A DNA stretch of 64,000 bases from a virus (taxonomy: Duplodnaviria; Caudoviricetes), in the IMG/VR virus record IMGVR_UViG_3300021185_003947, one strand, 5' to 3'. Shown here one piece after another: positions 9,316 through 61,137 of the stretch. The first letter of the stretch is position 1. Every line of letters starts with the position of its first letter. The notes under the pieces are model-generated. The model was not told the origin of the DNA. It saw only the letters and a list, made by a program, of their open reading frames with translations, and ran no database searches. Both the position numbers and the translations under genes were made by a program.

Positions 9316-10204
9316 GATACCAATCCAATAATCCTCTATATCCGTTACAGCTATTATTTAAATCTTTGACATATCGATAATGCTCTGTTAAGCAGTTTCC
9401 AAAATACTTACATGAAGCACATATAGGACTTATCATTTCTTCTTTTTCTTTATTTGTCCAATCAATGTATTGTTCCCAAGAATCCAATTCAAGAAAGAAT
9501 TCTTTATCCTCTTCATCAAATTCCAAGACACCAAATTTGCCAGAAGGAGTGATGTATATATGATCATCCGAAAATGCATTGTATCTTCCTTTCATTGATT
9601 CTATAATTCTGTCTTCATTTACAAATTCAAACTTCATAGTGTCTTTTAATTTAAGCCACTTTATAACAAAATCTTCAAAGTCTTTGTGTGTCACATTGTG
9701 AGCATTTGCTTGATTAATTGAATATGGTTTAATCTCAACAGATGTAATTGACGAACACATATTCAACATATTAATCATTTCAGATACATCTTTTTCTAAC
9801 ACCTTTGGAGAAGCTAAAACCAAAACTGCAATAGGTACTGTACTCATTAACATATTATTAAATACAAGTTCAGACTTTTCTCTTGCTTCAAAATCATATG
9901 AAACAGAAAGATATACATCATCATCAAAAAAGCCTGGATGCATCATAGAATAATTTGTGTTGATGCTAATTTTACCTGAATAGTATTTTTTTATAACATC
10001 TTTAATGCCATAAAAATATGACTTTTTCATTGCGCCAACTTCGCCGCCGTATAAGTCAATATGTTCAATATTATGTACCTGAGATAGCAATATGTCTAGT
10101 TTATTGAACGAAATTTGTTTTTGATCTCCAAGTTGCTTAGTAGATAGGTAACAAAAATCACATCTAAAATTACAAAAATATGAAGGATTGATCGATACGA
10201 TCAT
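9296..10204 (-). CDS. Radical SAM protein with a Cys-rich SPASM/twitch-like C-terminus
   Basis: CNFRCDFC (CxxxCxxC), GGE motif, C-terminal CASCKYFGNC...C. Confidence 0.88.
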   Translation of the reverse strand: MIVSINPSYFCNFRCDFCYLSTKQLGDQKQISFNKLDILLSQVHNIEHIDLYGGEVGAMKKSYFYGIKDVIKKYYSGKISINTNYSMMHPGFFDDDVYLSVSYDFEAREKSELVFNNMLMSTVPIAVLVLASPKVLEKDVSEMINMLNMCSSITSVEIKPYSINQANAHNVTHKDFEDFVIKWLKLKDTMKFEFVNEDRIIESMKGRYNAFSDDHIYITPSGKFGVLEFDEEDKEFFLELDSWEQYIDWTNKEKEEMISPICASCKYFGNCLTEHYRYVKDLNNSCNGYRGLLDWYHERMAS

Positions 10205-10815
10205 TACCTGGCCGGAAAGGAAATATTCATTACTACTGCAAGTCTATCTTCTTCACCATAATAAGGAGTTACTTCATGCCATACATGTGCCGGAACAATA
10301 ATAATTGTATTTTTTTCAGTCTCAATAGACATTTTAGATTTAGGTCTTGTTTTTATAACCTGGTTAAATGCTGGGTCATGAAAAATTAATTTGCCACCAT
10401 CTTTATCATTATCTACACAGTCTAAATAATAAACCGCAACCATTGAAGCACCACTATGACAATGCAAACCTTTATAATCACCATTTCTCATAAAGGGCAA
10501 TCTTCCGGTGGTCAATTCCATCCGTTCTAAAATTTCGGCATGTGTAATTGATTCATCATATTCATTAGCTAGTTTTAAAAATGACTTTGCAAAAAAATCA
10601 TATAAACTTTTTATTTCATTATAATTTTTAATATTATCATCTGTAAATAACGGGATATGCACTCCATCATCTCCACCATCTTGATATGAAAGACCGGCCA
10701 TAGCTAAATGATTTCTAAATATTGCTTGACATACTGAATTAAGTGTACTACTTTCTTCTTCATTAATATCATGCAATTCATGTAACATTTTTATTGGAAA
10801 AATAGTTTTTATCAT
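10204..10815 (-). CDS. Putative 2OG-Fe(II) oxygenase (HxH...H type), paralog of 8358-8933
   Basis: HCHSGASMVAVYYL...GGKLIFHDP...PAHVWHEV...RLAV. Confidence 0.75.
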   Translation of the reverse strand: MIKTIFPIKMLHELHDINEEESSTLNSVCQAIFRNHLAMAGLSYQDGGDDGVHIPLFTDDNIKNYNEIKSLYDFFAKSFLKLANEYDESITHAEILERMELTTGRLPFMRNGDYKGLHCHSGASMVAVYYLDCVDNDKDGGKLIFHDPAFNQVIKTRPKSKMSIETEKNTIIIVPAHVWHEVTPYYGEEDRLAVVMNISFPAR

Positions 10816-11846
10816 GCGTATTCCCTCTCATACGGCGTCAATTGTCTATCGATGCTATTTATACTGATTATATCAGTTGCTAAAGTCTTCATATGTTTAC
10901 AATGATCTTCTACCATATTATGCTGTTTTAAATCTTTAATAGTTTTTTTACATCCATTACAAATTTCAAACATAGGACAAGTATAACATGCATTTTTTAA
11001 ACTCATTAAACTTAAATCTGTTGCAAGAGGTGTTGAAAACCCACCACTCATTTCGTAATCAAAATCAATAGCCTTATCTAAATCATCGCCAAATGCACCA
11101 CATGAATAGTAGTCACCTTCAGGTTGAAGTGTCCGAATGCCAGAATCGCATGTTCTTGTTTGTGGACATATAGTAGATTCTCCTCTTAGTCGTACCATCA
11201 TCTGTTGAGTGTTATGTTCCCAATCGCTTAATCCAGCTTTCCATATTTCAACATAACGTTCATATATTTTCGATAATTGATATGGAGCAGACTGAGAACC
11301 TGATGCCATAGCATAATTTACTTTACAGACTACATCCATTTTCTTTGCAAGTTCAACTGTCTTAATATGAGTATCTTCATTCTCTTCAACAATAACTGCT
11401 ATGAATGAAGGTCTATACCCAACATGTTCAACCATTGCATCTGAACACTTCCAAAAATCTTCTTCTGTAAATTCACTATAATCACCTTTTAATCTCCCTC
11501 CTCCATATTGAAATGATGTAGCTACACCAACTCGAGGATGGTTAAAAAGTTTTTTCCATTTCATTGGTTTCATAAGAAATGGATATAAATTTGTTGTAAG
11601 TGATATTGTTGCAGGCAGCTCATGCTTATCAAGATACTCTATAATTTTCCAATAGTAATTTGGTTTCATCATTAATGGATCGCCACCATTAACAATAATT
11701 GTTTGAGTATCTGGAAAACGTTTTAAAAACTTAAATATTTTATTTAAATCAAGAGTAGCAGTATTATCTTCAAACGTAATTTTAGATGATGAACAAAATG
11801 AACATTTAAAATTACACAATTCTGTTGGTTTGACAATTAGGTCCAT
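10812..11846 (-). CDS. Radical SAM/SPASM-like protein
   Basis: CNFKCSFC, GGDPL, CPQTRTC...YSCG...CYTCPMFEICNGC. Confidence 0.9.
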   Translation of the reverse strand: MDLIVKPTELCNFKCSFCSSSKITFEDNTATLDLNKIFKFLKRFPDTQTIIVNGGDPLMMKPNYYWKIIEYLDKHELPATISLTTNLYPFLMKPMKWKKLFNHPRVGVATSFQYGGGRLKGDYSEFTEEDFWKCSDAMVEHVGYRPSFIAVIVEENEDTHIKTVELAKKMDVVCKVNYAMASGSQSAPYQLSKIYERYVEIWKAGLSDWEHNTQQMMVRLRGESTICPQTRTCDSGIRTLQPEGDYYSCGAFGDDLDKAIDFDYEMSGGFSTPLATDLSLMSLKNACYTCPMFEICNGCKKTIKDLKQHNMVEDHCKHMKTLATDIISINSIDRQLTPYEREYA

Positions 11847-12382
11847 GGCGAATTGCTAACTTTAAACCCAAAATTCATAGTGATTCTGTGCATATCAGGA
11901 TCTCTGAAATGTTCAACTCTGTGTTCGAACTGTTTATCTTGGCTTCCTACTACTACATCATATTTTTGAGGTAAATGAAAGGCTGTGATTCTATTATTTT
12001 GTGATATATTTCTAAACATAATTTCACCACCAGCGTCTTTATTCATATCAGTAAAATATAAAAGAAACATTATATTTGCACCTTCACAAAAATCATTATG
12101 CCAATGACATGAAGTTTGTTCGGTGCCATTCCAACAATGATAATAAATCAAATCTTGTTTTTCTGAATATGGTTTTAAATAATGATTAAAAAGATAATCA
12201 GCAGTCATTAGCATTTTCTTTCGCATACCCAATATATAATAATTTAAAGGAAATCGATAATCTTTTCTATTACCAATACCTCTAAGCCATTTTATATTAG
12301 GAATAGTATCTTCTAAATATTGAAACGCTCGAACGTTATTTTCTGTGTAAAATCCATCATCCATTTTCCAACCATTTTTCAT
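11837..12382 (-). CDS. 2OG-Fe(II) oxygenase (prolyl-hydroxylase-like)
   Basis: HWHND (HxD)...GGEIMF...FEHRV...RITMNF. Confidence 0.75.
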   Translation of the reverse strand: MKNGWKMDDGFYTENNVRAFQYLEDTIPNIKWLRGIGNRKDYRFPLNYYILGMRKKMLMTADYLFNHYLKPYSEKQDLIYYHCWNGTEQTSCHWHNDFCEGANIMFLLYFTDMNKDAGGEIMFRNISQNNRITAFHLPQKYDVVVGSQDKQFEHRVEHFRDPDMHRITMNFGFKVSNSPWT

Positions 12383-13524
12383 AGCATTTTTACCTTTTGT
12401 CTAAATCCATATGATAAATCATCTTCACCATCACGTTTTGGTTTAAATCCCTTTGTTTTTTTAACGTAGTTAAACGTTTCTTTAAAAACACATTCTTCCA
12501 TATCATTGTGATCACCTGGCATATCAGCTTTTACAAAGCATGTGAATGGACAGTTTTCATAATATTCACACTCAAAACAATTATATTTTTTTAAAAACTT
12601 TTCTACCATCTCTCCTGTTTCAAATAGTGTTTCACCAGTTTTTTTATCTCGCTGATATGCTACACCACAACATCCACCGGGTGATGAACCATCAGGTTGA
12701 ATAGTTATTGAATTACCTCTTGTGCACATCATTGCACCAGTTTGATTCAATGGATCATGAAATGCATCCATATTTTCGCACTCAGGATAGTTATCTACTA
12801 AATATTTATTGAATGCTAATAACTCACTGTCTTTAGGAATTAATTTTGCATCTGCTTTAATTAATGGCGATGGCATATAAGCATCAAAATCAACTGGGAA
12901 GTTTTTATACAAATAATCAAAAGTGCTTTTATCGTTACTTTTTATAATTGTTTGTACATTTTGGCTAGTAGTAACAATTGAAACGTTTCTAATATAATCT
13001 TTAAAAGTCTCAACATTTTCTAAGAATATTTCTAGTTGACCTTTGTTAAATCTACCTCTTGGATCATAAGAAGTTGAAAGCTTTACATCGTGCTTATTAC
13101 AAAAGTCCATAACCTTATCTGAATTTTTTTTGTCAAACATAAAATTAGTAAGATAATTAAAATAAATTCTTTTGTCACCAATGTTAATCTTGGATTTGAC
13201 TAAGTCCATAAATTCTTCATATACATCTAAAAAGCCTTTTTCAATCCATAGATCTTCAAATAATTCTCCACCTAATAGATGTAATTTATAGTCTTTTGAT
13301 CTTGGCGAATTGTTAATAAATTTAGCAACAGTATCGCTTTTTGCTAAAATTTCTTCTCGAGTAGCTCCAACCATTGAGTTATGATCTTGTGGACAAAACA
13401 CACATTTTAAATTACAATGTTCAAAGAATATTATAACAAGTTCACTTGATCGAGTAATCTTGCTTCCTAAGATTTTGTATATATCAAAATCAAGTGGAGC
13501 TGGATTAATAGGTGCTACAGACAT
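12379..13524 (-). CDS. Radical SAM/SPASM-like protein
   Basis: CNLKCVFC, GGELF, CTRG...CCG...CFECEYYENCPFTC...C. Confidence 0.88.
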   Translation of the reverse strand: MSVAPINPAPLDFDIYKILGSKITRSSELVIIFFEHCNLKCVFCPQDHNSMVGATREEILAKSDTVAKFINNSPRSKDYKLHLLGGELFEDLWIEKGFLDVYEEFMDLVKSKINIGDKRIYFNYLTNFMFDKKNSDKVMDFCNKHDVKLSTSYDPRGRFNKGQLEIFLENVETFKDYIRNVSIVTTSQNVQTIIKSNDKSTFDYLYKNFPVDFDAYMPSPLIKADAKLIPKDSELLAFNKYLVDNYPECENMDAFHDPLNQTGAMMCTRGNSITIQPDGSSPGGCCGVAYQRDKKTGETLFETGEMVEKFLKKYNCFECEYYENCPFTCFVKADMPGDHNDMEECVFKETFNYVKKTKGFKPKRDGEDDLSYGFRQKVKML

Positions 13525-15185
13525 TCTTTACTTACCTCTGACATAATTATATGTCTATTTTTTTCTATAAATTTATTTATAGTATTTGCTCTAAACTCTT
13601 GATTTAAAACTTTAATGCTTTTTGGTTGAGAATTTGGATTAAATATATCTCTTATTTCAGAATGTATATCATCCCATCTATCTAATTTACTTATAGCTTC
13701 ATATGCTTTTTTAGTAAAGACTGATGGCGATATGCTATTTTCAAGCATAGGATAAAAGTGCTGCAATAAATAATTTCCAGCACTATTCATAAACCACATT
13801 TCATGCATTTCTTCAATTGTAAACGAAAAGCACGATGATATTGTTTTGAAATACGATTTTTTATTTTTGTACAAATTATTCCAGCTATCAATTCCCTGTT
13901 CATCCGCAATATCAGTATAAACTTCAACTGTTCGAATATCATATTTAATTTTATATTCCTGAGAATTAAGCGCTGAATCCGGAAGAAACATATAATCATG
14001 TCTATAAGAACCAAACGATTTAAAATTCCAGATATATTCCATTTCATTATAAAAGTCTTCTATTGTAGAACCTGGCATTGCAAGGATCATTTCTAAATTA
14101 GGTATCGGAAACCCATGCTTTGAACATTGCTCATTAATGTGTTTACTTAATTTTAATTTATCTTCTGTATTTAAATCAACTCTTTCAGCTATTTTCATTG
14201 CAATGTCAGAACTGCTTTGAATAGACACTGATGGAACTATCGATATATTGGCCATCTCACTCCACATATCTTTTCCATTTTTCATATTTGGAGAAGTGTA
14301 ATTTGTTCCAACAATTTCAAAATACTTATCAATTAATTTTTTTCTTCTATTTAAATCCTTAGATTTCATGGTAGAAATATCAGTTAAATTAAAACCATTT
14401 GTCCAAGCATATTCGAATATTTCAAAGTCTCTTTCAAAAAAAGCTCCAAAGTTTGCATCATTTAAATAAGCAGATCTATAACCGGCTTTTAGCATAGCAT
14501 TGATATCACGTTTTACTATGTCCAAGGATTTCTTATAAATCTTTGTATTAATACCTCCACCCCATTCGCAAAATACACACTTATAAGGACAACCTCTTGT
14601 TGTCTCTAAAACAATAAACGGTTCCATTTTATTATTACGAGCGTATTTAAGTAATTTTGTAAGATATTCTAAATGATCTTCGTATACTGAATAATCTTCT
14701 TTTGATAAATCATGTATGAATTTTACATCAGATCTTAATTCCCATGGAATACTTGTTGGATCTATTCTGTTTTCAATAAACTGATCGATAAGCTCAGCCA
14801 TAAATGGCTCACCTGGTTTAGTAGGTCTACAAATTAAATCATACTGAGGACGTGATGCTAATAGTTCTGGTTCATTGGTTCCAATATGTGGACCACCTAA
14901 AACTAGTATTTTTTCTGGATATTTATTTTTAATTTTATTAGAAATTTCATCACATATCATATAGTTCCAAGTATAAGAAGAAAACATAATTATATCTGCT
15001 TCAATTATATCATTTATTACTTCATCATAAGATTTATAGCTATTCCATTTATATGGTGATTCTAACCACTTTACTTTTTTACTGTATTTGCCAAAACGAG
15101 AATAGTAACTTTGCATTAATAAAAATGTAAAGTTATTTGCTAGTGACCAGTCAGCGTGAGGAGGATTAATAAATGCTATAATCAT
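13515..15185 (-). CDS. Radical SAM protein with an N-terminal B12-binding-like domain (class B-like)
   Basis: N-terminal IAFINPP...FSSYTWN...VLGGPH and ETTRGCPYKCVFCEWG. Confidence 0.82.
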   Translation of the reverse strand: MIIAFINPPHADWSLANNFTFLLMQSYYSRFGKYSKKVKWLESPYKWNSYKSYDEVINDIIEADIIMFSSYTWNYMICDEISNKIKNKYPEKILVLGGPHIGTNEPELLASRPQYDLICRPTKPGEPFMAELIDQFIENRIDPTSIPWELRSDVKFIHDLSKEDYSVYEDHLEYLTKLLKYARNNKMEPFIVLETTRGCPYKCVFCEWGGGINTKIYKKSLDIVKRDINAMLKAGYRSAYLNDANFGAFFERDFEIFEYAWTNGFNLTDISTMKSKDLNRRKKLIDKYFEIVGTNYTSPNMKNGKDMWSEMANISIVPSVSIQSSSDIAMKIAERVDLNTEDKLKLSKHINEQCSKHGFPIPNLEMILAMPGSTIEDFYNEMEYIWNFKSFGSYRHDYMFLPDSALNSQEYKIKYDIRTVEVYTDIADEQGIDSWNNLYKNKKSYFKTISSCFSFTIEEMHEMWFMNSAGNYLLQHFYPMLENSISPSVFTKKAYEAISKLDRWDDIHSEIRDIFNPNSQPKSIKVLNQEFRANTINKFIEKNRHIIMSEVSKECL

Positions 15186-57223: not shown

Positions 57224-57991
57224 CTACTCTTTCATATTTTTTATATTCTCTATGTAGCAATCCATACTATGATCACTAAAATTATCTATCTTTAATTTCA
57301 TGACACCAGCAGCCATGCCTTTTAGTCTATCCCACAATCTTTTAAAACCAGATATTTTTACTATTTGACCTTCTGAATTCATATAATGTTCTGTTCCATG
57401 ATGTCTATAACCCATCATTACTAAAGGTACACGAGTAACAACGTCGTTATTATTTACGAATCTATGATGGATTACGCCAAGTGAATTACAATATTTTTTA
57501 AAGCCTACACGAGGAGAACCAAACGTATACAATTCAACCGGATCGTTTAAAAATAAATTATGTAGACATCTTGAGGCCATAATAGTTGCCATGCCTGCTC
57601 CGAGTGAATGACCAGTAAACCAAAGAGTCTTGCCATTATTCTGTTTTCTAGTTAAATCTTCGCATATTGCAGGCCACAATTCATCAACTTCTGATTTAAA
57701 TCCTTTATGAACTCTAGATACTGTTTCTGCCATTACCGGAATCGATTTTAAGTCTGCTTTAATGTCATTGAATTCATTTGGTTGAGTTCCTCGACAAGCT
57801 ATAATACAATCATACTTATTCATAAATCTATATGCCTGTGCGCCATTGACATCATAAAATTCAATTGTATTGAATTCAAGTCTACGCGCAGCGCCCGTAG
57901 CTTCTTTAAGGTCAGAGTACGCAATTGCTGATAGTCGAGCAAACAAGAGGCTTCTGGCTTTAAAACTTAATTGATTTATTGGTCGTGCCAT
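57224..57991 (-). CDS. Class 3 lipase-like alpha/beta hydrolase
   Basis: IACRGT, VHKGF, FTGHSLG (GxSxG), TFGSPRVG, NNNDVVTRVP. Confidence 0.9.
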   Translation of the reverse strand: MARPINQLSFKARSLLFARLSAIAYSDLKEATGAARRLEFNTIEFYDVNGAQAYRFMNKYDCIIACRGTQPNEFNDIKADLKSIPVMAETVSRVHKGFKSEVDELWPAICEDLTRKQNNGKTLWFTGHSLGAGMATIMASRCLHNLFLNDPVELYTFGSPRVGFKKYCNSLGVIHHRFVNNNDVVTRVPLVMMGYRHHGTEHYMNSEGQIVKISGFKRLWDRLKGMAAGVMKLKIDNFSDHSMDCYIENIKNMKE

Positions 57992-58261: not shown

Positions 58262-58371
58262 TGGCTCCAAGGGCAGGATTCGAACCTGCACGAATATAAA
58301 TATTCTTTTGCTAAGACTATATATTCACAACATAAACAGTGCTGCGTGTCTACCTATTCCACCACCTTGGA
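58262..58371 (-). tRNA. Atypical 110-nt tRNA with a GUU (Asn) anticodon and a 38-nt variable arm
   Basis: Acceptor TCCAAGG/CCTTGGA, G73, CCA; anticodon arm CAGCA-CTGTTTA-TGTTG; T arm GCAGG-TTCGAAT-CCTGC. Confidence 0.8.
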
Positions 58372-58377
58372 TTATTC

Positions 58378-59202
58378 TTACTTTTTAAGAGTATCGATCG
58401 CGCTTATCATGCGTGTCATACCAATTCCACCACCAACTCTTGGAAAGAAATCAAATTCAAGAAACTTTTCAAGTTCTGTTTCAACACGATCTTTACCAAA
58501 TAATTGGTTAATAAGACCAGCATATTCTCCATTTGAAATAGTATGAAATGTATCTCGCATTTGGTCTTTATCAGTACTGCGTTCTGCACTACCAATTGTT
58601 TCCATACCACCAAGGATAACATCAATCTTCTTACTTGTACCATCTTCATTTCTTGACATATTCCAAAATGGACTTGTAAATTCAGGAAATTCTGTAATCA
58701 TAGAACTACCAAAACTAGCTTCCATTGCTAACTCGTGCTGAGCATCTAATTCTGTAGTAGAACTTAGACCGTAATGTTGTTGCCATTCACGATATGTTTT
58801 TTCTGTTGGAATATCAAATCCTAAGTGATTACATAATTGATATTCCATAGTCTTAAGATCATCGATGTCTCCTGGCATTTCAAATTCAAACATCGGAAAA
58901 ATCGTATCATGTCTTCCAGGAATTGCATTTGGTTCTTGTCTATACGAAGTCGAGACACAAAAAAACCCCTTCGAAGAGGGGCGAGTTAATAATTCATATT
59001 CCAACCACATCTGGCCAGTTTGAGGAAGAGGCCATATTTGCCCTTCATAATTATATGTTGCTACATTTTCTGGATCTTCACATGCAGCTAAAATGCTTAA
59101 TCGGTTTTGTGTATGTACTTCTTCAAAGCCTCTATTCAAAAAAAATGACCTTAAAAGGTCAACTGCTTTTGTAAATTTTTTTGGTTCAATCAATTGCGTC
59201 AC
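58378..59202 (-). CDS. Class IIb aminoacyl-tRNA synthetase paralog (Asp/Asn/Lys family), catalytic domain only
   Basis: Motif 1 LRSFFLNRGFEEVHT, motif 2 YRQE...RH..IFPMFEFE, motif 3 GGGIGMTRM; no N-terminal anticodon-binding domain. Confidence 0.85.
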   Translation of the reverse strand: MTQLIEPKKFTKAVDLLRSFFLNRGFEEVHTQNRLSILAACEDPENVATYNYEGQIWPLPQTGQMWLEYELLTRPSSKGFFCVSTSYRQEPNAIPGRHDTIFPMFEFEMPGDIDDLKTMEYQLCNHLGFDIPTEKTYREWQQHYGLSSTTELDAQHELAMEASFGSSMITEFPEFTSPFWNMSRNEDGTSKKIDVILGGMETIGSAERSTDKDQMRDTFHTISNGEYAGLINQLFGKDRVETELEKFLEFDFFPRVGGGIGMTRMISAIDTLKK

Positions 59203-59411
59203 TATCTTATCCTTTTCTTATATTTGCCACATTGGGAATATTTATACAAATAATTTCCATTAATATCATTATTAGCTGAATTATATAAAGCCCAACGAAA
59301 ACAATTCCAAATATTATATGAAGTGTGATAGTACCAAGGGAAAGGAAATTCGTGTCTCCTTTCCCTTAATTGTTTATACCAAGCAATAAATAATTTTATT
59401 CTTCTATTCAA
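59202..59411 (-). CDS. Hypothetical aromatic-rich protein
   Basis: 69-aa ORF coupled to the aaRS-like gene. Confidence 0.5.
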   Translation of the reverse strand: MNRRIKLFIAWYKQLRERRHEFPFPWYYHTSYNIWNCFRWALYNSANNDINGNYLYKYSQCGKYKKRIR

Positions 59412-60202: not shown

Positions 60203-60288
60203 TGGTGCTCTCACCCGGACTTGAACCGGGACGGCCTATGGCCAACAGATTTTAAGTCTGGCGTGTCTACCTATTCCACCATGAGAGC
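60203..60288 (-). tRNA. trnL: tRNA-Leu(UAA)
   Basis: 86-nt class II cloverleaf; loop CTTAAAA; encoded CCA. Confidence 0.93.
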
Positions 60289-60828: not shown

Positions 60829-61137
60829 TTATATTGCGAAACTTTCTCCACATCCACATTGAGCTGTTGCTTGTGGATTTTTTACAACTAAATAGTTTCC
60901 ACCTAGTTCGGTTATATAGTCAACCGTACAACCAAATAAAAACATTTCAGCCATAGCATCAATAACTAAAGTGCTATCTATAACTGTCCCTTTTGAGTCA
61001 TCATCTACATATGTCCAATCATATTTAAACCCGCTACACCCGCCACCTTTTACTTCAAGAAGTACATAATTTTTATCAGCCAAAACTAACTGATTCGTCA
61101 TATATTCTTTTGCTTTTTCAGTAAGTGATACAATCAT
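60829..61137 (-). CDS. iscA: A-type Fe-S cluster carrier (IscA/HesB family)
   Basis: GGGCSGFKY and NPQATAQCGCGESF. Confidence 0.93.
   Translation of the reverse strand: MIVSLTEKAKEYMTNQLVLADKNYVLLEVKGGGCSGFKYDWTYVDDDSKGTVIDSTLVIDAMAEMFLFGCTVDYITELGGNYLVVKNPQATAQCGCGESFAI

Follow-up and report, generated by a model that had tools for sequence, protein, structure and literature searches.

A class IIb aminoacyl-tRNA synthetase paralogue linked to a dedicated non-canonical tRNA in T4-like cyanophages

Organization of the locus

We analyzed a two-gene locus within a stretch of 64,000 nucleotides (nt) of viral DNA, hereafter called the window (IMG/VR record IMGVR_UViG_3300021185_003947; Caudoviricetes), which belongs to a T4-like cyanophage with 33.5% G+C, gp32, radical-SAM genes and a tRNA cluster. 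On its minus strand lies an open reading frame (ORF; 58378..59202) that encodes a stand-alone class IIb aminoacyl-tRNA synthetase catalytic core of 274 amino acids (aa), which resembles asparaginyl-tRNA synthetase (AsnRS) and has no anticodon-binding domain, as judged from its Pfam family (PF00152), its PHROG (29758) and its AlphaFold2 fold. The ORF starts with GTG, preceded by an AGGA 8 nt upstream, and ends with the stop codon TAA at 58380-58378. Read directly from the sequence, a spacer of 6 nt (58372..58377, minus strand) separates this stop codon from position 1 of a 110-nt long-arm tRNA with the anticodon GUU (58262..58371, minus strand), which is supported by the Rfam tRNA model, a cloverleaf minimum free energy (MFE) fold and covariation. 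The initial annotation of this sequence had described a 274-aa protein that starts near class II motif 1 and keeps motifs 2 and 3, and, 6 nt after its stop on the same strand, a GUU tRNA with an enlarged arm. The protein part is borne out by the Pfam range and the aligned residues, and the tRNA part by the coordinates, the Rfam score and the fold. Contigs from RNA libraries of three studies span the locus and join the ORF to the tRNA, which is no proof of transcription, of transcript ends or of processing. We regard the enzyme as a paralogue of the class IIb synthetases and the non-canonical tRNA as dedicated to it.

Linkage of the enzyme and tRNA genes

Searches with tblastn found relatives of the enzyme in the Prochlorococcus phages P-SSM7 (70% identity), P-SSM2 (66.5%) and P-SSM5, where they are annotated as 'tRNA ligase' (T4-GC 194), and in three uncultured huge-phage records (44-49% identity). 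In P-SSM7, P-SSM5 and P-SSM2, a tRNA-Asn(GUU) of 85-88 nt begins 7-10 nt after the enzyme gene, and both genes are annotated in GenBank without comment. When P-SSM2 was scanned with a covariance model built from the partner tRNAs (R1), the partner tRNA was the only match.

To follow the linkage from the protein side, we used a set of 80 IMG/VR loci with 76-99% protein identity. The tRNA follows the enzyme in 75 of them: 72 carry a complete long-arm GUU tRNA on the same strand, two a tRNA with one acceptor mismatch, and one a tRNA cut by the contig end. The other five loci have no partner tRNA within 3 kb. The spacer in relatives is mostly 5-25 nt long, and a small ORF stands between the two genes in four loci. 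For the reverse direction, the collection was scanned with the tRNA-only motif GGTAGACACG-N5-CTGTT-N-A, which covers one sequence variant of the tRNA. Among the 120 stretches that match this motif, the enzyme gene lies directly upstream in all 113 that could be assessed, and no motif-found tRNA lacks the enzyme where at least 400 nt of upstream sequence are present (7 of 120 have too little). Linkage across phages, which the initial annotation had proposed to examine, is thus strong both ways (75/80 by protein, 113/113 by tRNA motif).

The kilobase flanks of these loci fall into 24 unrelated context groups upstream and 19 downstream; since the flanks differ across loci, the two genes move as a unit. 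The linkage is also asymmetric, in that the enzyme sometimes occurs without the tRNA and the tRNA never without the enzyme. This asymmetry is expected if the tRNA depends on the enzyme and unexpected if host enzymes charge it. Linkage persists down to approximately 50% protein identity. The enzyme family itself is large: in marine metagenomes, clustering at 90% identity gives at least 8000 groups and clustering at 50% identity (E up to 1e-3) gives 672, and the family occurs in at least 588 places in IMG/VR. The only names that databases give to it are 'tRNA ligase' and 'aspartyl/asparaginyl-tRNA synthetase'. Comparison of the region with the phage collection by megablast gave no match, nor did a scan of viral contigs with the distant family member P0154. 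We found no paper on the pair, the chimeric tRNA or the function of the enzyme in open-access text.

Anatomy and conservation of the partner tRNA

The Rfam tRNA model (RF00005) matches 58265-58371 with 44.7 bits (gathering score 29), ARAGORN gives no tRNA call at 58262-58371, and MFE folding yields a cloverleaf that bears a long extra arm. The acceptor stem (UCCAAGG/CCUUGGA; 58371-58365 with 58272-58266, minus strand) begins with U1-A72 and is followed by G73 (58265) and an encoded CCA (58264-58262). The anticodon GUU (58335..58337, minus strand) sits in the loop CUGUUUA, with U37, on the stem CAGCA/UGUUG, and the T-arm reads GCAGG-UUCGAAU-CCUGC. According to computed folds, the variable region of 38 nt (58290..58327, minus strand) forms a 7-bp outer stem (GAAUAUA/UAUAUUC), a 4-bp inner stem and the apical loop AGCAA. 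The D-arm region (58346..58364, minus strand), with its 3-bp stem and 11-nt loop, is of the tRNA-Leu type, its block being part of approximately 20 nt shared without mismatch with the tRNA-Leu(UAA) of the window (60203-60288).

An alignment of 56 distinct partner tRNAs (A2) supports this structure: the cloverleaf and the foot of the extra arm are paired in 99.6% of cells, compared with 80.6% after shuffling and 38-63% in slid registers. Compensatory change occurs in 18 of 23 pairs, and three base pairs at the foot of the variable arm covary. Invariant in all 56 tRNAs are U1-A72, G73, U33-G34-U35-U36 and most of the D-loop and T-loop; the acceptor pairs 2-5 and the anticodon stem vary, as do positions 32, 37 (U, A or C) and 38. 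The variable region ranges from 13 to 39 nt with 2-12 bp among the relatives. Despite this range of stem lengths, 41 of the 56 have a GNRA-type tetranucleotide, mostly GCAA, in the apical loop of the variable arm, which is a possible recognition or tertiary-contact element.

The marks of a bacterial tRNA(Asn), namely GUU, G73 and U1-A72, are common to the 56 relatives and host tRNA-Asn, and the T-arm and acceptor marks of the window tRNA likewise resemble host tRNA-Asn. The class I body of tRNA(Asn), with its variable loop of 4-5 nt, and A37 are replaced by a long arm, a Leu-type D-arm and U37. The base-paired variable arm, the 3-bp D-stem and the large D-loop are those of a class II (long-arm) tRNA. 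Outside the family, the best matches of the covariance model R1 are tRNA-Leu genes, and blastn with the tRNA returned only partial matches at chance level or tRNA-Leu/Ser. Judged by its sequence, the partner tRNA thus reads as a chimera that carries Asn identity marks on a class II, Leu-like body.

Other long-arm tRNAs with anticodons that are not of class II occur in LR756508.1, a record that carries a 44% homologue of the enzyme. One (~9418-9515) has the loop CUUUGGA (UUG, Gln) with U1-A72 and G73, the other (~10212-10308) the loop CUUCGAA (UCG, Arg); neither adjoins the ligase homologue.

Sequence motifs and predicted amino acid pocket of the enzyme

The sole Pfam match of the 274-aa protein is tRNA-synt_2 (PF00152, class II D/K/N; E 6e-14, 52.2 bits against a cut-off of 25). 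Because this match covers residues 10-269, the protein is a catalytic core without the N-terminal OB-fold; its N-terminus lies about 10 residues before motif 1, and alignments begin at residue 131-141 of full-length AsnRS. In PHROGs, the protein falls into family 29758, listed with function unknown (E 6.5e-135). NCBIfam yields only sub-threshold matches of 12-26 bits, namely to AspRS(Asn) (aspartyl-tRNA synthetase), LysRS (lysyl-tRNA synthetase), AsnRS, archaeal asparagine synthetase A and EpmA. The cut-offs of the asnS equivalog (TIGR00457; 18.7 against 342.6 bits), the asparagine synthetase A model (NF005055; 15.2 against 389) and the EpmA/GenX model (TIGR00462; 12 against 286.9) are not reached.

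The ATP-binding residues of motif 2 (pattern fRxE...RH..EF; R88, E90, R97, H98) and motif 3 (pattern GxGxGxxR; R264), along with E106 and E108, are present and align to Escherichia coli AsnRS. The positions Q61, Q64, L67, E68, R88, E90, R97, H98, E106, E108, R208 and R264 reach 85-97% conservation each in an alignment of 66 relatives that spans 31-91% identity. Motif 1, which belongs to the dimer interface, has Gln in place of its invariant Pro here and in the family consensus (GFEEVHTQ, compared with GFFWVSTP in E. coli AsnRS). In alignments to E. coli AsnRS and AspRS, the phage segment QTGQMWLE pairs with VSGQLNGE of AsnRS and places Leu67 at the Lys position of the AspRS segment QSPQLFKQ; FEFE pairs with LEPE of AsnRS, where AspRS has IDVE, and ETIGSAER with EIIGGSQRE of AsnRS. 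In AspRS, a Lys and an Asp presumably read the aspartate side chain, and in AsnRS a Glu and an Arg read asparagine. An Asn-type pocket has no Lys at the AspRS Lys position, a Glu after motif 2 and an Arg in the motif G-S-x-R; Leu67, Glu68, Glu106 and Arg208 of the phage protein agree with this, and the pocket motifs look like those of AsnRS, not AspRS. An Asp-charging role similar to that of a non-discriminating AspRS (ND-AspRS) was set aside, as the Lys position of AspRS is Leu.

Some distant family members depart from this pattern. P0231 (L200:3001-3849; 33% identity) lies in a bacterial-looking context between lpxB and rpmB/rpmG with no tRNA nearby, and its catalytic residues are partly altered (FEFV, GAEH). 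In P0176, P0264 and P0269 (alignment A3), the pocket arginine is gone, as are arginines of motif 2 or 3; these proteins may be pseudo-enzymes or enzymes of changed function.

Fold, profile comparisons and phylogeny

AlphaFold2 with the alignment of 66 relatives gave a model with a predicted local distance difference test (pLDDT) score of 96 and a predicted template modelling (pTM) score of 0.92; a model from the single sequence (pLDDT 37) was discarded. Foldseek ranked AsnRS first both in the PDB and among Swiss-Prot models. With VIA-align, AsnRS structures scored Z 27.6-26.6 (root-mean-square deviation 2.1-2.5 over about 248 residues, 21-22% identity), followed by archaeal AspRS (Z 26.6-26.1, 17% identity), the archaeal-type asparagine synthetase AS-AR (Z 23.9-23.5, 240 residues, 20% identity), GenX/EpmA (Z 23.8-23.3) and LysRS (Z ~23.5).

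Since phmmer with the single protein returned only marginal LysRS and AspRS matches in the PDB, a family profile was needed. Its best matches were AsnRS (1e-14), archaeal AspRS (2e-13) and Pyrococcus horikoshii AsnRS (7e-11), ahead of AS-AR (1e-6), whose match spans about 100 residues, and GenX (1e-5). Compared with E. coli proteins by hhalign, the family reached probabilities of 95.8 for AsnS, 94.9 for LysS, 93.9 for EpmA, 89.4 for AspS (N-terminal half only) and 3.3 for AsnA.

In a maximum-likelihood (ML) tree, the phage family forms one clade (support 95/93) that lies outside a clade (98/94) of E. coli AsnRS, E. coli and cyanobacterial AspRS, and LysRS with EpmA; EpmA groups with LysRS, apart from the phage clade. 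With references limited to bacterial enzymes, the tree establishes no more than that the family does not nest within bacterial AsnRS, AspRS or LysRS/EpmA. Of the groups that the initial annotation had proposed for a phylogeny, it covers AsnRS, AspRS and EpmA. From these sequence comparisons, the phage family appears to be a separate deep branch of class IIb that is not derived from the host.

Asparagine pathways of the hosts

We reached four complete picocyanobacterial genomes via the phage psbA (Prochlorococcus MIT 1012, MIT 9302 and SS51; Synechococcus RCC307). The asnS model found only LysRS and AspRS in them (~100-118 bits, cut-off 342.6). Above this cut-off, AsnRS is present in 0 of 121 genomes of the Prochlorococcus GTDB family, while 6 of 14 control genomes were positive. 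The established pathway to Asn-tRNA is otherwise the indirect one, through ND-AspRS and GatCAB; with no AsnRS in the host family, Asn-tRNA must come from this route. Host tRNA-Asn is an ordinary 72-nt molecule with U1-A72, G73, A37 and a 5-nt variable loop. An asparagine synthetase of the AsnB type exceeds the cut-off in MIT 1012, SS51 and RCC307 and is absent from the high-light strain MIT 9302, which may have no route to free asparagine. The phage genes contain 62 Asn codons per 1000, about as many as samples of high-light Prochlorococcus and about three times as many as the Synechococcus RCC307 sample (the host samples being small).

Proposed mechanism

We propose that the 274-aa protein is a minimal, anticodon-blind AsnRS core that charges its own tRNA, the two together forming a self-contained aminoacylation module of T4-like cyanophages, and we give this reading a probability of about one half. 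The reading builds on the observed anatomy, conservation and linkage of the pair, on the fold of the enzyme and on the lack of AsnRS in the hosts; the amino acid, its transfer to A76, the role of the arm and the orthogonality are the parts of it that we infer. Using ATP, the core would activate asparagine or another small polar amino acid much like it, and would load this onto the 3' end of the chimeric tRNA(GUU), which is presumably transcribed along with the enzyme gene. Because the enzyme has no anticodon-binding domain, recognition would have to lie elsewhere than in the anticodon: in the acceptor end, with its invariant U1-A72 and G73, and probably also in the body formed by the Leu-type D-arm and the long arm. 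The ribosome would then use the invariant GUU to decode AAY codons. As the yeast AspRS-tRNA and SerRS-tRNA structures show, class II enzymes have the variable region of the tRNA turned towards them; the long arm may therefore offer the phage core a handle and also clash sterically with the hinge and OB-fold of the full-length host AspRS, and the pair would then be largely orthogonal. Bacterial GatCAB recognizes U1-A72 together with the D-loop and does not accept additional bases in that loop (PMC2811023), so the Leu-type D-loop may also shut the phage tRNA out of the indirect pathway. Given that the hosts make Asn-tRNA only indirectly, the module would add a direct and independent supply for an AT-rich, Asn-rich phage.

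A stronger version can be put forward only tentatively. In it, the pair is naturally orthogonal and virus-borne, the core reads the shape of the tRNA (acceptor end and GNRA-tipped arm), the tRNA is closed to host AspRS and GatCAB, and direct asparaginylation is installed in cells that have none; in a radical variant, the core amidates or otherwise modifies the tRNA-bound residue and is a one-protein replacement of GatCAB.

Several observations weigh against charging by a minimal AsnRS. The protein, being a catalytic core and nothing else, offers no obvious domain for holding a long arm. Position 37 of tRNAs is near-universally a purine, and A37 is the site of N6-threonylcarbamoyladenosine (t6A) in tRNA(Asn); it is odd that a tRNA which has to read ANN codons should carry U37 or C37. 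In the tree, the phage clade lies apart from the available references for bacterial AsnRS, AspRS and LysRS and is not established as an AsnRS. A direct AsnRS needs a pool of free asparagine, and one of the four host genomes has no AsnB-type synthetase above the cut-off. U1-A72, G73 and GUU are the marks read by ND-AspRS and bacterial GatCAB (PMC2811023), and the same marks stand on the phage tRNA, which leaves room for charging by the host.

The distant homologues speak in the same direction. Those at 39-49% identity (LR756501/LR756508, P0138, P0176) have no such tRNA within ~3 kb. P0121 (55%) is followed by a GUU tRNA of 77 nt with the same D-arm and a short variable region. P0127 (49%), on a GC-rich contig of 191 kb, is followed by a 135-aa ORF and then by a 105-nt long-arm tRNA (L204:4021-4125, Logan contig), whose loop CGGUCAC has the nominal anticodon GUC and G33 for U33, with U1-A72 and G73; the enzyme pocket is unchanged there. 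The initial annotation, which had suggested an orthogonal pair, had named two observations that together would speak against it, homologues that usually lack an odd tRNA and synthesis of free Asn by an enzyme that does not act on tRNA: the first does not hold for close homologues (75 of 80 have one) and often holds at 39-49% identity. Its suggestion is therefore supported in part, by the linkage and by the movement of the genes as a module, and not by the distant homologues, which are often without the tRNA and in one case have a short-arm partner.

Alternative explanations

The initial annotation had offered a free-Asn synthetase as the simpler alternative. The enzyme would be a tRNA-independent amide ligase of the AS-AR type, producing free asparagine from aspartate, NH4+ and ATP; the host would charge the tRNA(GUU), and a shared demand for asparagine would link the genes. 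Like AS-AR, the phage protein is a stand-alone class IIb core of ~270-290 aa, the AS-AR structures align well with it (Z 23.9-23.5), some homologues have no tRNA nearby, and the tRNA keeps all marks for ND-AspRS and GatCAB (GUU, G73, U1-A72; PMC2811023). However, in hosts without AsnRS (0/121), free asparagine could not be loaded onto any tRNA, and the logic of the pairing would be gone. AsnRS and AspRS are also closer to the phage enzyme than AS-AR by about 3 Z units and eight orders of E-value, the asparagine synthetase A model scores 15 bits against 389, E. coli AsnA reaches an hhalign probability of only 3.3, and the Lys of the AspRS segment QSPQLFKQ is Leu here. That the tRNA never occurs without the enzyme (113/113) is unexpected under host charging. 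Weakened by fold and profile comparisons, by the AsnRS-like pocket motifs and by the hosts' lack of AsnRS, this alternative seems to us unlikely.

The enzyme might instead act on its own tRNA by a chemistry other than 3' charging with asparagine: it could amidate Asp attached by ND-AspRS, as a one-protein, ammonia-using substitute for GatCAB, aminoacylate a base of the anticodon loop in the manner of GluQRS, or load an amino acid for a use outside translation. The precedents are truncated paralogues with non-canonical acceptors (GluQRS, EpmA, AS-AR), and the hosts do use the indirect pathway. The loop keeps U33-G34-U35-U36 without exception, next to a free position 37, even though the enzyme lacks a domain for anticodon binding, and the acceptor stem, which covaries elsewhere, never changes at U1-A72; decoding, however, would also account for the conserved GUU. 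Against such chemistries, the full set of adenylate-forming residues and the AsnRS-like pocket for an alpha-amino acid make normal activation and transfer the simplest assumption, and the encoded CCA with intact acceptor and T arm suits use of the 3' end, so that we consider them improbable. It seems more improbable still that the protein is a relic, or that it serves an unrelated protein or small-molecule acceptor in the manner of EpmA, the tRNA being an ordinary phage supplement and the adjacency shared inheritance within one lineage. The scores of EpmA/GenX (Z 23.8-23.3, hhalign probability 93.9), the lost catalytic residues of P0176, P0264 and P0269 and the bacterial lpxB/rpmB context of P0231 would fit this. 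The linkage, however, survives a change of both flanks and identities down to ~50%, the catalytic residues are clearly conserved in the phage clade, the pocket QTGQ..LE is unlike the LysRS/EpmA pattern in alignments, and the architecture of the tRNA is far from ordinary.

Comparison with known systems and significance

The catalytic domain of AsnRS (P. horikoshii 1X54, human 8TC8, Brugia malayi 2XGT) is alike in fold, in motifs 2 and 3 and in the pocket motifs. The phage core differs from it in the absence of the N-terminal OB-fold and hinge, in a shorter helical insertion between motifs 2 and 3 and in the exchange of the motif 1 Pro for Gln, and it scores far below the asnS cut-off and branches outside bacterial AsnRS, AspRS and LysRS. 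AS-AR ('AsnRS2'; 3P8T, 1NNH) is likewise an adenylate-forming, stand-alone class IIb core of similar size without anticodon domain, though its similarity in structure and profile is below that of AsnRS and AspRS; bacterial AsnA is not detectably similar by hhalign. To our knowledge, neither AS-AR nor AsnA is linked to a tRNA, whereas the phage enzyme is near-obligately linked to a dedicated one, in hosts that have no AsnRS to use free asparagine. EpmA (GenX/PoxA), the beta-lysine ligase of EF-P, is also a truncated class IIb paralogue without anticodon domain and with a substrate that resembles a tRNA acceptor, but it derives from LysRS, has a Lys-type pocket and has a protein, EF-P, not a tRNA, as its partner. 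GluQRS (YadB), a paralogue of GluRS, likewise does without an anticodon-binding domain, and its substrate is a tRNA of the G34-U35 family; unlike the phage enzyme, GluQRS is of class I, modifies Q34 of the ordinary host tRNA-Asp and has no private tRNA.

If charging by a minimal AsnRS holds, the pair would resemble PylRS-tRNA(Pyl), SepRS-tRNA(Cys) and allo-tRNA, in which a class II enzyme that ignores the anticodon is combined with an unusual tRNA that the host may not use. It would differ from them by its unrelated lineage, a sense codon (AAY), a presumably canonical amino acid, the bare core and the viral carrier. Such an enzyme would be smaller than any other class II synthetase known to take part in translation. 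It would also add to the few natural examples in which an enzyme blind to the anticodon has a sense-codon tRNA of its own, and the viruses that carry it rank among the ocean's most abundant. It would show by what means a phage gets around the ND-AspRS/GatCAB route of its host to Asn-tRNA, provide a compact candidate orthogonal pair for genetic-code engineering, and bring within reach of a test the old question of how much tRNA identity a bare class II core can read. Should the enzyme be an amide ligase instead, it would still represent a new and very large viral branch of class IIb paralogues.

Genomic neighbourhood

A sequence resembling a T4 late promoter (TATAAATA; 59239..59246, minus strand) lies 37 nt upstream of the GTG start and is a weak hint only, as motifs of the TATAAATA type are not enriched in the window (16 found, 14.3 expected). 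A scan for sigma-70-like promoters returned a count below chance. The ligase ORF itself contains, on the minus strand, two hairpins followed by runs of T that resemble terminators (58965-58982 and 59146-59161); the terminator scan gave 4 sites per 1.8 kb, compared with 0.9 expected, and Phe-Phe codons may account for them.

Just downstream of the pair is a gene similar to class-3 lipases/esterases (57224-57991, minus strand; PHROG 21992). The same neighbour is found in P-SSM2 and P-SSM5; other phages have a different gene downstream. A small protein that is IscA/HesB-like by motif (60829-61137, minus strand) is encoded beside the tRNA cluster Leu(UAA)-Met-Arg(UCU), and two radical-SAM proteins, one with a B12-binding domain, are encoded at 10812-15185 on the minus strand.

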